Assembly (NCBI GenBank): GCA_947628985.1 | Contig: CANRCA010000003.1 | Coordinates: 1-41,011 of the forward strand | Length of the DNA stretch: 41,011 nucleotides | Reading direction: 5' to 3' | Source of the DNA: an uncultured Bacilli bacterium | Lineage (GTDB): Bacteria > Bacillota_I > Bacilli_A > RF39 > UBA660 | Shown here: positions 32,703 to 40,608 of the stretch, piece by piece | How positions within the stretch are numbered: position 1 is the first letter of the stretch | Layout of the letters: each line of letters starts with the position of its first letter | Program-made: the position numbers and the translations under genes | The notes under the pieces: generated by a model | Seen by the model: the letters and a program-made list of their open reading frames with translations, nothing else | What the model was told of the DNA's origin: nothing | Databases searched by the model: none

Positions 32703-34427
32703 CTACATTCTATCTGGTATTTCTATTGCTAGAATATCTAATAGTTTTTCACATGTATTATAAATTAATTTAAGCATAGATAAGTAAGTATTTCTTTTAT
32801 CATCATCTTTTTCATTTAATATATTAGTTTCTGCATAAAACTTATTAAATAAACTGCATATATCAAATAAATATTCACATATATAACTTAAAGTTTTTTC
32901 ATTATAAGAATTTTTTAATATCTTAGAAAGTTCTATTAATTTTATATAAATATTTTTTTCTGTTTCACTATATATTGATTTTATTTCATATTTTTCTATA
33001 TTTTGTTTTTTCAAAATAGATTTAATTCTAACCATAGTATATAAAATATATGGTCCTGTTTTTCCATCAAATGAACAAAATTTTTCAATATCAAATATAT
33101 AATCTGTTGAACGATATGGTAATAAATCTGCAAATTTAACTGCAGAAACTATTAATTTATCTAAAATATTTCTTTTTTCTTCATCATTATCAAATTTATC
33201 CATTTTTTTATTTAATTCTTCTTCAATTTGTTTTAATAATGAATTTAATGATAAAACTCCACCATCTCTTGTTTTATATGGCTTTCCATCTTTACCATTC
33301 ATAGTTCCATTATAATAATGTGCAAGTTTAACATCTTTTCTAACTAAACCACTTTTATAAGATGCTCTAAATACTTGTTTAAAATACATTGATTGTCTTA
33401 TATCTGCAATATACCAAATTTCATCTGGATTATAATTTTTAACTCTTGAATAAATAGTAGCTAAATCTCTAGTAGCATAAATAGATGCACCATTATTTTT
33501 AATTACTATTAATGGTGGTATTTCTACTTTATCATCATCTTTTTTAACATCTATTACCATTGCACCATTTGATTCATACATATATGGTTTTAATATTTCT
33601 AAAGTTGGTTCTATATAATTTAAAGAACTTAGTTCACCTTCCCATAAATCAAAATTACAATTTAAATAATCATAAACTCTTTTTATTTCATTAGCAGATA
33701 CTTCTACTATATCTTTCCACATACTGATATATGGTTCTTTTCCTTCTTCTACTAATGCAGTAATATTTCTTACTTCTTCTAATCTTTCTTCATCTTCCTT
33801 ACATGCATTACTAGCAGCAGGATAATATACTGAAAGTTCATAAGGAGTTATTTCTAATTTTGGATACTTTCCCTTATAATTTGGATCAAAATAACATAAA
33901 TCTGGTTTTCTTCTTTTAATTTCACTTATAACCATTCCAGATTGTCTTCCTAAATCTCCTAAATGAACATCTCCTATTACTTTATTTCCTAATAATTTTG
34001 CTAATCTTTTTAAAGATTCCCCAATATTAGCAGGTCTCATATGTCCTACATGTAATTCTTTAGCGGCATTAGCACCACCATAATCTATAATAATTGTTTT
34101 TTCTTCTTCTTTATCAATCAAAACATCAAAATTATCAATTGCTAAATTTATATTTTCTATTAAAAAATCATCATTTATAGTTAAATTAATAAAGCCAGGT
34201 CCAGCTATATTAATATTAGTAAATCTATTATCTATACTACTTACTATTTCTTTTGCTATTTCTAAAGGATTTTTTCCATATTTCTTAGCAAGTGGCATAG
34301 CAACATTTATTTGAAATTCACCTAAATCACGACGAGATGATGATTCTAATGTTACATCATCTATTTCATATCCACATTTATTAATAACATCTTTCAAATA
34401 ATTTTCGCTTTCTTTAATAAAACTCAT
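32703..34427 (-). CDS. argS: Arginine--tRNA ligase
   Basis: AGPGFIN, ANAAKELHVGHMR (HIGH), YATRDLA, KTRDG, GKTGPYILY, C-terminal PDRM. Confidence 0.97.
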   Translation of the reverse strand: MSFIKESENYLKDVINKCGYEIDDVTLESSSRRDLGEFQINVAMPLAKKYGKNPLEIAKEIVSSIDNRFTNINIAGPGFINLTINDDFLIENINLAIDNFDVLIDKEEEKTIIIDYGGANAAKELHVGHMRPANIGESLKRLAKLLGNKVIGDVHLGDLGRQSGMVISEIKRRKPDLCYFDPNYKGKYPKLEITPYELSVYYPAASNACKEDEERLEEVRNITALVEEGKEPYISMWKDIVEVSANEIKRVYDYLNCNFDLWEGELSSLNYIEPTLEILKPYMYESNGAMVIDVKKDDDKVEIPPLIVIKNNGASIYATRDLATIYSRVKNYNPDEIWYIADIRQSMYFKQVFRASYKSGLVRKDVKLAHYYNGTMNGKDGKPYKTRDGGVLSLNSLLKQIEEELNKKMDKFDNDEEKRNILDKLIVSAVKFADLLPYRSTDYIFDIEKFCSFDGKTGPYILYTMVRIKSILKKQNIEKYEIKSIYSETEKNIYIKLIELSKILKNSYNEKTLSYICEYLFDICSLFNKFYAETNILNEKDDDKRNTYLSMLKLIYNTCEKLLDILAIEIPDRM

Positions 34428-34548
34428 GTGAATTCTTTCCTTTCAAGAAATATTATAACACGACTATTATAAAAATTAAATTAATTTTTTATCATATTTT
34501 TAAGCTTTTAAAATATAATACCATATATCTATATCATATATGTGTTTT

Positions 34549-34577
34549 TTGACAAAGCATTAAAAATATGGTATGAT
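34549..34577 (+). promoter_or_regulatory. Sigma-A promoter of ole-oapA
   Basis: TTGACA-17nt-TATGAT with extended TG; predicted start 34583-34585 coincides with the 5' strand of the RNA closing stem. Confidence 0.85.
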
Positions 34578-34582
34578 TAAAT

Positions 34583-35040
34583 GCGTATGGAGCACTATGC
34601 TAGTCAAACATACCACTAGAAGATGGGGCTAAAAATCCATTAATTGTACAAAAGTGAGACTTTATATATTTTGCTTCTTTCGCCCAGATTGGGGTGAGTA
34701 TATAATTTTAGATTTAAGGATATTATGCAATGGCATGTATATGAATCCTTTTATCAAATCGAGTGTATATGAACGTACATGTCGTGAGTGATTTATTGGG
34801 ATAGAAATTGAAAAATAAATTGCAAAAGCGAATAAAAGTGAATTATGTTTGTTTGGGAAAACCTCTAGTGTGTCTATATTATAAGGATTGAAGTGCGGAC
34901 TAAGTGGTGATCGAGTGATCATTATGGTAACAAATGATTTATAATTTTAAAGAGAAATCGCCTACGGGTAACTAAGGGTAATTATGAGAGAAATTCAACT
35001 CGACCAAAGCCGTAAAATTAATTTATAATATTCCATGCAA
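34583..35040 (+). ncRNA. ole: OLE RNA (ornate, large, extremophilic), compact variant
   Basis: GC-elevated stretch with no + strand ORF directly upstream of oapA; 5' GUAUGGAG pairs with 3' UUCCAUGC; blocks resembling OLE consensus as I recall it (CUAGU..CCACUAG, GGGAAAACCUCUAG, GGAUUGAAGUGCGGACUAAGUGGUGAUC, CGCCUACGGGUAAC). Confidence 0.88.
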
Positions 35041-35059
35041 ATTTTTTCTAGGAGATAAA

Positions 35060-35578
35060 ATGAAAGATAAATGGATCATTAAGACTTTTTTAATGACTTT
35101 TTTTATAGCATTATTTTTTAATAGTGTTTCAAATGTCATTTCAAATAAATGTAATAATTTAATAATATTAATTTTACTTGCAATATTATTTATAGCTATC
35201 GGTATTATTTTTGATATAATTGGTACTGCTGTTTTAACTGCTAAAGAATCAACTTTTCATGCTAAAAGTGCTAAAAAAATTAAAGGCTCAAAACAAGGAG
35301 TATATTTAATTAAAAATTCTAGTAAAATAGCAAGTATATGTAATGATGTTGTTGGTGATATATGTGGTATTGTTAGTGGTTCTGTTAGTGCTATTATAGG
35401 AATTACAATATCAAATACTTTTAATATATCTGTTATATTAATTACTTTAATAATAAGTTCTATTATTTCAGCGTTAACTGTTGGTGGAAAAGCAATAGGA
35501 AAAAAATTTGCTATTAAAAATAGTGATGAAATAATATTCTGTGTTGCTAAAATTATTTCTAAATTTAAAAAAGATTAA
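35060..35578 (+). CDS. oapA: OLE-associated protein A (CNNM/DUF21-like membrane protein)
   Basis: GIIFDIIG, FHA, CNDVVGDICGIVSG and LTVGGKAIGK motifs; about 4 TM; immediately downstream of the RNA. Confidence 0.9.
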   Translation: MKDKWIIKTFLMTFFIALFFNSVSNVISNKCNNLIILILLAILFIAIGIIFDIIGTAVLTAKESTFHAKSAKKIKGSKQGVYLIKNSSKIASICNDVVGDICGIVSGSVSAIIGITISNTFNISVILITLIISSIISALTVGGKAIGKKFAIKNSDEIIFCVAKIISKFKKD

Positions 35579-35601
35579 GGTTTTAAAAATCTTAATCTTT
35601 T
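35569..35601. terminator. Bidirectional terminator overlapping the oapA and typA stop codons
   Basis: AAAAGATTAAG-11nt-CTTAATCTTTT. Confidence 0.75.
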
Positions 35602-37405
35602 AATTTCTATTACTTCTAAATCTTTCTTTTTCATCAAGAATTTTCTTTCTAAGTCTAATCGCATCTGGTGTAACTTCTACTAATTCATCAGATTCAATAA
35701 ATTCTAATGCTTCTTCTAAAGTAAATGTTTTTGGTTTAGGAAGAGCAATTGCTTCATCACTACTAGTAGATCTTGTATTTGAAAATTCTTTATTTTTACA
35801 TGGATTAACATTTAAATCATTTTCTCTATTATTAATTCCAATTATTTGTCCAGAGTATACATCTACTGATGGCTCAACTATCATAGTACCTCTATCTAAT
35901 AAGTTATATAAAGCATATCCAAATGTTTTACCACTTTCCATTGAAACTAATACACCATTTTTACGACCTGTTATTTCACCAGCATAAGGTTTATATGAAT
36001 CAAAACTTCTTACCATGATTCCTTCACCTTTAGTATTAGTAATAAAGCTATTTCTATATCCTATTAAACCTCTTGTTGGAACTGAAAACTCTAATCTAAC
36101 ATAATTTTCTTCAGCACTTTCCATAAGTTCCATAGTACCTTTTCTTTCACTTAAATCACTTATAATTGTTCCTGAATAATCGTTAGGTACATTTATTATA
36201 ACTTTTTCATATGGTTCACATTTAACACCATCTATTTCTTTAAATATTACTTCTGGTTTTGAAACACTTAATTCATATCCTTCTCTTCTCATATTTTCAA
36301 TAAGAATAGATAAATGTAATTCTCCACGACCAGATACTTTAAATCCATCAGATCCTGGTAATTCTTCTACTTCTAAACCTACATTTCTTTCAAGTTCTGC
36401 CATTAATCTATCTCTTAAATGTCTAGAAGTTACAAATTTTCCAACTTTACCAGCAAAAGGACTAGAATTAACTAAAAAGTTCATTGATAGTGTTGGTTTT
36501 TCAATTTCAATACTTGGTAGTGGATCAACATGATCATTATCACATATAGTATCTCCTATTGAAATATCAGGACAACCTGCTACTATTACTATATCTCCAT
36601 AATATGCAGTATTTACTTCTTTCTTCTTAATTCCTTCATTTATAAATAATTTAGTAATTTTTTCTTTTTCAATACTTCCATCATTCTTAGAAATAGTTAC
36701 TGTTTGACCTACACTAATTTTACCTTTATTTATTCTACCTATTCCAAGTCTACCAATATAATCATCATAATCTAAAGATGAAATTTGGAATTGTAATGGA
36801 TCATTTTCATTTCCTTCAAAAGGTTTAGTAGTTTCAATAATTGTATCTAATAATGGAGTAATATCATTATTATCATCATCTATTTCATATTTTGCTATTC
36901 CTTCTTTAGCAATACCATATATTATTTTAAAATCTAATTGTTCGTTACTAGCATCTAAATCACAGAATAAATCAAATGTCATATTAACAACTTCTTCAGG
37001 ACGAGCATCTTTTTTATCTATTTTATTAATAAATAATATAGGTTTTAATCCATTTTTTAATGCTTCTTTTAAAACAAATCTTGTTTGAGGCATTGGTCCT
37101 TCTGCTGAATCAACTAATAAAACTACTGTATCAACTGTTTTAATAATTCTTTCAATTTCACTTGAAAAATCAGCATGTCCTGGAGTATCAACTATATTCA
37201 TTTTATAATCTTTATATCTAATAGAACAATTTTTAGCAGTTATAGTTATACCTCTTTCACGTTCTAAATCTCCACTATCCATAACACAATCAACAACTTG
37301 TTCATTATCTCTAAAAACACCATTTTGTTTTAATAAAGCATCAACAAGTGTACTTTTTCCAGCATCAACGTGAGCTACAACAGCAAAATTTATTATTTTT
37401 TCCAT
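35600..37405 (-). CDS. typA: Translational GTPase TypA/BipA
   Basis: AHVDAGKST, ERERGITI, DTPGHADF, NKID, GRGELHL, ENMRREGYE, ELVEVTP..IRLRK. Confidence 0.97.
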   Translation of the reverse strand: MEKIINFAVVAHVDAGKSTLVDALLKQNGVFRDNEQVVDCVMDSGDLERERGITITAKNCSIRYKDYKMNIVDTPGHADFSSEIERIIKTVDTVVLLVDSAEGPMPQTRFVLKEALKNGLKPILFINKIDKKDARPEEVVNMTFDLFCDLDASNEQLDFKIIYGIAKEGIAKYEIDDDNNDITPLLDTIIETTKPFEGNENDPLQFQISSLDYDDYIGRLGIGRINKGKISVGQTVTISKNDGSIEKEKITKLFINEGIKKKEVNTAYYGDIVIVAGCPDISIGDTICDNDHVDPLPSIEIEKPTLSMNFLVNSSPFAGKVGKFVTSRHLRDRLMAELERNVGLEVEELPGSDGFKVSGRGELHLSILIENMRREGYELSVSKPEVIFKEIDGVKCEPYEKVIINVPNDYSGTIISDLSERKGTMELMESAEENYVRLEFSVPTRGLIGYRNSFITNTKGEGIMVRSFDSYKPYAGEITGRKNGVLVSMESGKTFGYALYNLLDRGTMIVEPSVDVYSGQIIGINNRENDLNVNPCKNKEFSNTRSTSSDEAIALPKPKTFTLEEALEFIESDELVEVTPDAIRLRKKILDEKERFRSNRN

Positions 37406-40416: not shown

Positions 40417-40608
40417 CGAGTTTTCGAAAAAAGAATTATAATCATTTATATTAAAGAATTTGGCTTTAATATAAATACTTCTAAATATTATCAGTATTTA
40501 GCATAATTTCTTATCATTTTGAGTTTTACTTTCTCAACGATATATCATTTGTCCTTAGTAGATAAGTATTCTATTTCTTAAATTAATAAGATTATTATTA
40601 TTTATACT

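Follow-up and report, generated by a model that had tools for sequence, protein, structure and literature searches.

The window analysed here, a 41,011-nucleotide stretch of DNA from an uncultured Bacilli bacterium of the RF39 lineage (assembly GCA_947628985.1, contig CANRCA010000003.1), harbors on its forward strand the gene for an OLE RNA of reduced form (34571–35052), identified by a covariance-model match, and downstream of it oapA (35060–35578), which encodes a 172-aa membrane protein identified by a profile match and a DxxxD motif. As the initial annotation had supposed, the genome is small and very AT-rich: the assembly carrying OLE and oapA comprises 1,060,077 bases (1.06 Mb) in 95 contigs at 67.8% completeness, and the GC content is 16–29% throughout the window.

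The Rfam OLE model (RF01071) matches 482 nt of the forward strand with a score of 216.1 bits and an E-value of 1.2e-59, and a search of the whole assembly identified this as the single copy. Because the match runs from end to end of the model (positions 1–616), and scores 216.1 bits against a gathering score of 50 bits, standard annotation does not miss the locus, contrary to the earlier suggestion that it might be missed or only partly hit. The 482-nt span also includes the −10 box of the promoter and the ribosome-binding site of oapA. With the −10 box lying inside this span, a start of the RNA near 34584 is probable; we infer a transcription start at about 34583–34585, and the actual OLE RNA probably spans about 34584–35045. 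The 458-nt estimate made initially (about 34583 to 35040) was a reasonable size for the RNA.

A sigma-70-type promoter lies upstream at 34549–34577 of the forward strand, with a −35 element TTGACA (34549–34554), a 17-nt spacer and TG-n-TATGAT (34572–34577). It matches at 11 of 12 positions with the TG present, and it ranks first among 15 promoter-like sites in the interval 34300–35800, a number of sites that is not above chance (shuffles average 12.5). The same arrangement, TT[GT]AC[AT], about 17 nt and a TG-n-TATAAT-like element, is kept at an equal distance to the RNA in all 18 untruncated loci of the genus, which supports the promoter as it was first called.

At the other end of the locus, an AT-rich 15-bp hairpin at 35569–35601, which could serve either strand, is a candidate two-way terminator by its fold energy (−12.8 kcal/mol, z −4.4, with none of 200 shuffles equally stable). 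Its place between oapA and a convergent gene encoding 601 aa makes it a plausible, not a proven, terminator. A consensus terminator scan downstream of oapA found no terminator. A further terminator-like call, at 34679–34698, is the P5.1 hairpin of the OLE RNA itself and was rejected.

Helices retained and lost

With helix names taken from the text of published OLE studies (PMC9723947, PMC7936274, PMC12286853, PMC12265935), the window OLE retains P1, P2, P3/P3.1, P4, P4a, P5/P5.1, P6, the base of P9, P10 and P12–P15. The conserved blocks are all present, namely the A-rich P4 loop, GCCCA, AAUGGCAU and AGUGCGGACUAAGUGGU, and are invariant in 18 of 18 sequences from the genus. The RNA is closed by P1, in which GUAUGGAG (5' strand, 34585–34592) pairs with UUCCAUGC (3' strand, 35031–35038); seven of these pairs are recovered by RNAalifold from the 18 genus sequences (columns 16–22 with 474–480), and this closing helix agrees with the 458 nt proposed initially. 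The P4 hairpin with its A-rich loop CUAAAAAUCC (34621–34642, model positions 54–73) is followed by the P5/P5.1 hairpin with its GCCCA loop (34663–34704, model 93–139) and by the P6 hairpin with its AAUGGCAU loop (34710–34752, model 144–190). A linker at 34753–34773 stands in place of P7 and P8 and leads into the 3' strand of P4a. The P9 stub (34774–34826) keeps a GGAU/UGAAA internal loop and the basal stem, which covaries in the genus (RNAalifold columns 223–232 with 251–260). The 3' domain, made up of P12–P15 with the invariant AGUGCGGACUAAGUGGU block, occupies 34874–35036 according to the model alignment, the genus alignment and RNAalifold, and both P13, with its bulged U, and P14.1 carry a GUAA tetraloop. 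All of these elements are on the forward strand. In the J4a/5 region, inspected by eye for the kink-turn that serves as the OapC site, the consensus of the genus is not the same as the GAUGA-type one, and a kink-turn may or may not still form there.

The missing elements were called by setting the window alignment against the full-length OLE of a named Rossellomorea genome (528.3 bits), both aligned to RF01071. Model columns 198–241 and 249–277 form two hairpins in the Rossellomorea RNA, P7 and P8. In the window both are gone, and the 80 model columns from 198 to 277 are reduced to 17 nt (44 columns to 8 nt and 36 columns to 9 nt). Also gone is the outer part of P9, with its palindromic GGCC kissing loop (50 model columns reduced to 4 nt), and a small hairpin upstream of P12 (model columns 424–435) is deleted. 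Set against the 616 columns of the Rfam model, the window OLE falls short by about 135 nt; its shortness had been noticed from the outset, and the run of the Rfam model places the losses in P7, P8, outer P9 and the one small hairpin.

The OapA protein and its relation to the RNA

We built an OapA profile from 62 proteins encoded downstream of OLE, all from loci with an OLE of at least 560 nt, and searched it against the 150 six-frame open reading frames (ORFs) of the window. The 172-aa ORF was the sole match (195.2 bits, E 6.8e-60), which, with the RF01071 match, confirms the original reading of the locus as OLE plus oapA. The motif CNDVVGDIC forms residues 94–102 of the protein, with the DxxxD at D96–D100. 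Both aspartates are invariant in 39 aligned OapAs, along with D52, G99, G107, K144 and K148, and these proteins are 28–76% identical to the one from the window; DVVGD had thus been correctly taken for the OapA DxxxD motif. We also looked in 81 loci (the window, two ultra-short loci and 78 of the cross-phylum sample described below) for the first ORF of 80 aa or more that begins within 250 nt past OLE on its downstream side. The motif D[VLM][IVM]GD, usually as CNDV[IV]GDI, occurs in 71 of the 81, and 73 of the ORFs are complete; the other loci comprise three without an ORF, five with an ORF open at the locus end, and two with a complete ORF that lacks the motif. At 172 aa, the window OapA lies at the short end of the sample range (172–231 aa, one 147-aa call apart).

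The hydrophobic segments of OapA lie at about residues 5–28, 25–62 and 97–146, and its AlphaFold model is all-helical (mean pLDDT 91.3, pTM 0.82). The top six PDB matches of this model in Foldseek are membrane domains of CorB/CorC (7m1t, 7m1u, 7cff, 7cfg), with TM-scores of 0.53–0.62 and probabilities of 0.97–1.00, at E-values of 0.0026 or weaker that do not reach 0.001. One of these structures, 7m1u, is the one used in published work on the H. halodurans OapA (PMC11332333). The Pfam CNNM family (PF01595) gave OapA 22.5 bits, under its gathering cut-off of 28.4, and apart from this weak match the search of the assembly found nothing in the family above the cut-off. Within the CNNM family of Mg2+ transporters (MpfA, CorB, CorC), the OapA model superposes best on the membrane domains of CorB/CorC; OapA differs from these proteins in having no CBS or CorC_HlyC domain, in its OapA-specific DxxxD and in being encoded beside OLE.

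The start codon of oapA is 7 nt past the end of the Rfam match, and its AGGAG ribosome-binding site (35050–35054) falls in the last bases of that match. This tight spacing, and the lack of any terminator between OLE and oapA, would suit a region whose main role is that of a long structured 5' leader controlling oapA in cis, and not that of a trans-acting partner of OapA. The two are, however, also co-transcribed where the RNA has been shown to bind OapA and to localise to the membrane (PMC12265935), and a genome of the window's own family (G264) has a 493-nt OLE and oapA on separate contigs, which fits poorly with a purely cis role. We consider a mainly cis-acting leader very improbable and treat the RNA as a partner of OapA in what follows.

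The partner proteins OapB and OapC

Neither OapB nor OapC, whose genes had been marked for a search at the outset, was detected in 50 genomes of the genus. An OapB query was obtained from a named genome with a full-length OLE and was confirmed against PDB 7k9b ("OLE-associated protein B"; E 1.9e-32). The homologue was located by its position between the methionine aminopeptidase gene and infA. This query gave no credible match in the 50 genus genomes, the window genome included; the single match (G051, E 0.003) falls within a frame of 319 aa and was treated as chance. Pfam KOW (PF00467) was discarded as an OapB probe, as in the named genome with a full-length OLE it returned two frames, of 115 and 177 aa, and no OapB; we take these frames to be L24 and NusG, probably. 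The L7Ae family (PF01248), to which OapC/YbxF belongs, was over its cut-off in none of the 50 genomes, and a 16.3-bit match in G044, below the cut-off and inside a 326-aa frame, was likewise treated as chance. Of the 50 genomes, 22 reach a completeness of 90% or more and stay within 5% contamination. With the window's own genome at just 67.8% completeness, it is chiefly the related, non-independent genomes of the genus that support an absence of oapB and oapC. A match to bS21 is present in the assembly (61.2 bits).

The GNRA loop and bulge of P13 are kept in the window OLE without an OapB having been found. This fits a second role of these nucleotides, which also make an RNA–RNA tertiary contact with P12.2 (PMC7936274).

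Conservation of the reduced RNA in the genus

Of 24 further genomes in the genus, 19 yielded OLE, and the five that gave no match are 72–94% complete. Counting the window, 18 matches are untruncated; they are 479–484 nt long and score 200–239 bits. In their alignment, which has a mean column identity of 87%, neither the loops nor the core block vary, and RNAalifold recovers from it 126 pairs that cover P1, P2, P3/P3.1, P4, P4a, P5, P6, P9 and P12–P15, with compensatory changes in 34 of the pairs. As the genus sequences share ancestry, this covariation supports a constrained structure and is no formal statistical proof of one.

That the shortened OLE is a decaying, pseudogene-like relic without a function of its own in a shrinking genome is scarcely credible: the genomes are indeed reduced, several substructures together with OapB and OapC have been lost, and the 55 of 151 genomes without an OLE match in a sample of the order show that OLE loss does occur in the clade, but whole hairpins have been removed cleanly, 34 of the 126 pairs in the remaining helices covary within one genus, the loops and core block are invariant in 18 species, the promoter is retained at 18 of 18 loci, and oapA is intact and adjacent.

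Relation to published OLE classes

Reduced OLE RNAs of this kind are already in print. A census of GTDB R214 (Fernando & Breaker, mSphere 2024, PMC11332333) sorted OLE RNAs into three classes: full-length RNAs, those of variant 1 and those of variant 2. Variant 1, from TANB77, is described there as having shorter P7, P8 and P9, often with the OapB site absent, and variant 2, found commonly in RF39, as missing P7 and P8 wholly with the conserved nucleotides kept. According to the same paper, TANB77 and RF39 are uncultured gut microbes with highly reduced genomes, largely without OapB and OapC, and the pressure that shrinks these genomes may have shrunk the OLE RNA too. Variant 2 RNAs score 235–310 bits on a covariance model of the authors' own, and hits below 235 were dropped. 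A full-text literature search returned 'variant 2' OLE RNA in this paper only. A review (Lyon & Breaker, RNA 2025, PMC12265935) adds that P7 and P8 make no dimer contacts, which may explain natural OLEs that lack them, and takes such natural losses as an argument that both stems can be spared.

The window OLE shares with variant 2 the absence of P7 and P8, the retention of the conserved nucleotides and of oapA, a small genome, and the lack of any OapB or OapC found; unlike variant 2, it additionally lacks the outer P9 arm and the small hairpin before P12. The fit to variant 2 is inexact, as a shorter P9 is published under variant 1 and the classes are defined by bit scores on the authors' own model. 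With variant 1 the window OLE has in common a reduced RNA, a host among reduced-genome gut bacteria and a shortened P9, but variant 1 keeps short P7 and P8 and frequently has no OapB site at the P13 tip, whereas the window OLE has neither P7 nor P8 and retains the GNRA tetraloop and bulged U of P13. It resembles the full-length OLE of H. halodurans (about 600 nt) and C. acetobutylicum (577 nt) in helix order, invariant loops, 3' domain, position ahead of oapA and a common covariance model (RF01071), and differs from it in being about 135 nt shorter, in missing P7, P8 and the P9 arm, and in belonging to a genus without detected OapB or OapC. Full-length OLEs score 463–559 bits among the matches listed, compared with 216 for the window OLE. 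The locus is very probably the reduced OLE ribonucleoprotein type known from small-genome gut bacteria, of the variant 2 type with a shortened P9.

How common and how small reduced OLE RNAs are

RNAs of this length are not rare, which removes the novelty originally attached to an OLE of about 460 nt: such forms make up 19 of 96 matches in a sample of the order and 5 of 78, among the matches listed, in a sample across phyla. The cross-phylum sample consists of 80 of at least 120 stretches collected by a core pattern, so that exact core matches are favoured; a first version of this pattern matched 7 of 20 genus loci and was loosened for the collection scan. Among the matches listed, OLE was found in 80 of 80 stretches, 78 of them not cut by the locus end. 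Of these 78, 70 have lengths of 573–711 nt and three of 531–562 nt, and a short class of five lies at 479–493 nt with 202–231 bits. In the order sample, OLE was found in 96 of 151 genomes, almost all from one very large family, and the matches comprise 71 of 533–620 nt (334–431 bits), four of 534–541 nt (248–287 bits), 19 of 480–516 nt from at least 12 genera, the window included (206–243 bits), and two of 378–381 nt (134–139 bits). With short OLEs on record in the literature and frequent in related genomes, the window locus is an ordinary case of an already known reduced OLE type that is common in its lineage. The "natural minimal OLE" defining the essential core that the initial annotation envisaged is not supported: reduced variants are in print (PMC11332333), and the OLEs of 378–381 nt are smaller.

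These lengths correspond to different sets of missing elements. In an intermediate OLE of 534 nt the losses are confined to P7, P8 and the small hairpin, and P9 is complete with its GGCC loop; in OLEs of 514 and 503 nt P9 is partly shortened, and in the window OLE a P9 stub is all that is left. The ultra-short OLEs of 378–381 nt come from three species in two sister genera of the window's family. In two of them (L176 of genome G129 and L177 of genome G150), model columns 74–277, which hold P5, P5.1, P6, P7 and P8 inside P4a, are replaced by 12–14 nt that read as a hairpin of 5–6 bp with a 4-nt loop, capping P4a. A third (genome G367) is 378 nt long and scores 136.4 bits. All three are followed by OapA (profile scores of 183–189 bits), and in L176 and L177 a 172-aa ORF with CNDVVGDVC begins 4 nt past the RNA. 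The ultra-short RNAs retain the A-rich loop of P4, the P9 stub, P10, P12–P15 and an adjacent intact oapA, and they apparently keep P4a and, judged by eye, P3. A junction pattern for the ultra-short form matched 4 of 401 genomes of the family, and three of these matches are genuine; the fourth, in G264, lies inside a protein-coding frame without an OLE core and was rejected. The class is rare, as it was found in three genomes of two genera among the 401 searched. It may also be undescribed in print, since its members score 134–139 Rfam bits and the published census dropped hits below 235 on its own model.

It is possible, although we advance this tentatively and with more doubt than conviction, that the window OLE represents one step in a nested series of deletions within the family, from about 600 to about 534, about 482 and finally 378–381 nt. 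If so, the P9 kissing loop would have become dispensable first and the P5.1/P6.1 kissing loops next, and the working core would be reduced to P3, P4, P4a and the 3' domain, with OapA as the sole protein.

Dimer contacts and a possible mode of action

Cryo-EM of the C. acetobutylicum and C. botulinum RNAs revealed an OLE dimer held by four contacts (PMC12286853, PMC12265935): an A-A contact of the P4 loops, two loop-loop contacts of P5.1 with P6.1, and a kissing loop between the tips of P9. P3/P3.1 is proposed to cross the membrane and P4a to be the OapA site, and for H. halodurans PMC12265935 reports that OLE RNA is bound by OapA and brought by it to the membrane. Both P3/P3.1 and P4a are kept in the window OLE and covary in the RNAalifold analysis of the 18 genus sequences. 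By analogy with these structures, the window OLE would keep the elements for the first three dimer contacts and, because the P9 arm is missing, could not make the P9 kissing-loop contact, and the OLEs of about 380 nt could make only the P4 A-A contact.

If the locus is read as encoding a reduced OLE ribonucleoprotein, its OLE RNA, about 460 nt long, would have a sigma-70-type promoter of its own and would probably share one transcript with oapA. OapA, a putative relative of the CNNM/CorB magnesium-transporter membrane domain, would then anchor the RNA at the membrane, where the particle may help the cell to cope with stress, as in Halalkalibacterium halodurans, and in this lineage it would work without OapB and OapC. 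Membrane anchoring, dimerisation of the RNA and a function in stress are carried over here from the literature on other species.

The window adds a further example of an RNA that is already catalogued, in a reduced form known from the literature, and the standard Rfam model annotates it correctly. Such forms show which parts of a large and biochemically obscure RNA nature can lose. The class to which the window OLE belongs shows that the P9 arm can be lost beside P7 and P8, and with it one of the four contacts of the cryo-EM dimer; its relatives of 378–381 nt suggest that the greater part of the 5' globular domain is dispensable too, with OapA kept. Short OLEs are also small natural constructs for work on binding, dimerisation and structure.

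Public sequencing runs contain related sequences. Metatranscriptome contigs at least 85% alike, from four runs of four studies, fall almost all within 34576–35059, and one contig of 450 nt spans 34605–35038 at about 89% identity; these are sequences of relatives, picked via conserved OLE words, from libraries of a kind that can contain DNA. The DNA runs that match best are animal-gut metagenomes.

Ultra-short OLE RNAs

Two sister genera include three species whose Rfam OLE matches define ultra-short OLE RNAs of 378–381 nt (134–139 Rfam bits), located at L176:1501-1878 in genome G129, at L177:1501-1881 in genome G150, and at G367:C9:18515-18892 (locus L201). In all three, a short hairpin caps P4a in place of the entire P5–P8 domain. 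The OLE RNA of the window is larger. With a profile built from OapAs encoded beside long OLE RNAs, oapA was identified downstream in three of three loci (183–189 bits), and in L176 and L177 the OapA reading frame is 172 aa long and starts 4 nt 3' of the RNA. The score floor of the published OLE census (Fernando & Breaker, 2024) possibly lies above these RNAs. A further match to the search string for the ultra-short junction, at G264:C18:8479-8517 (L196), was rejected as a chance match within a protein-coding frame, and the pattern by itself is thus not specific for ultra-short OLEs.

Conserved loops where no OapB was found

P13, with its GNRA tetraloop and bulged U (window 34909-34931; columns 355-378 of the genus alignment), and the GNRA loop of P14.1 (34958-34979; columns 399-419) are both kept across the window's genus. 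The P13 tetraloop and bulged U are the mapped OapB site, yet OapB was found in none of 50 genomes of the genus. These elements are probably conserved for RNA-RNA tertiary contacts.

Other OLE loci and a further RNA motif

In G264, a 98% complete genome of the window's family, no oapA follows the 493-nt OLE (G264:C8:31130-31622; L200/L097), and the sole OapA match (G264:C2:94010-94510; L203) is on a different contig, so that OLE and oapA are unlinked, at least as assembled. In a Desulfosporosinus MAG (L059), taking the first ORF of at least 80 aa that starts up to 250 nt downstream of OLE yielded no oapA; a c-di-AMP riboswitch (L059:1637-1779; 90.6 bits) lies about 170 nt 3' of the RNA.

OLE matches (346–495 bits) also occur on contigs of MAGs labelled Muribaculaceae (L050, L081, L091), Fibrobacter (L083) and Actinomycetota (L077), with an ordinary OapA reading frame 3' of OLE in L081, L091 and L077. 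These matches fit the published remark that OLE in non-Bacillota MAGs probably reflects binning errors or transfers.

The window also carries a PGK RNA motif (Rfam RF03040) on the minus strand at 40481-40573, matching the full model at 82.9 bits (threshold 50.8).
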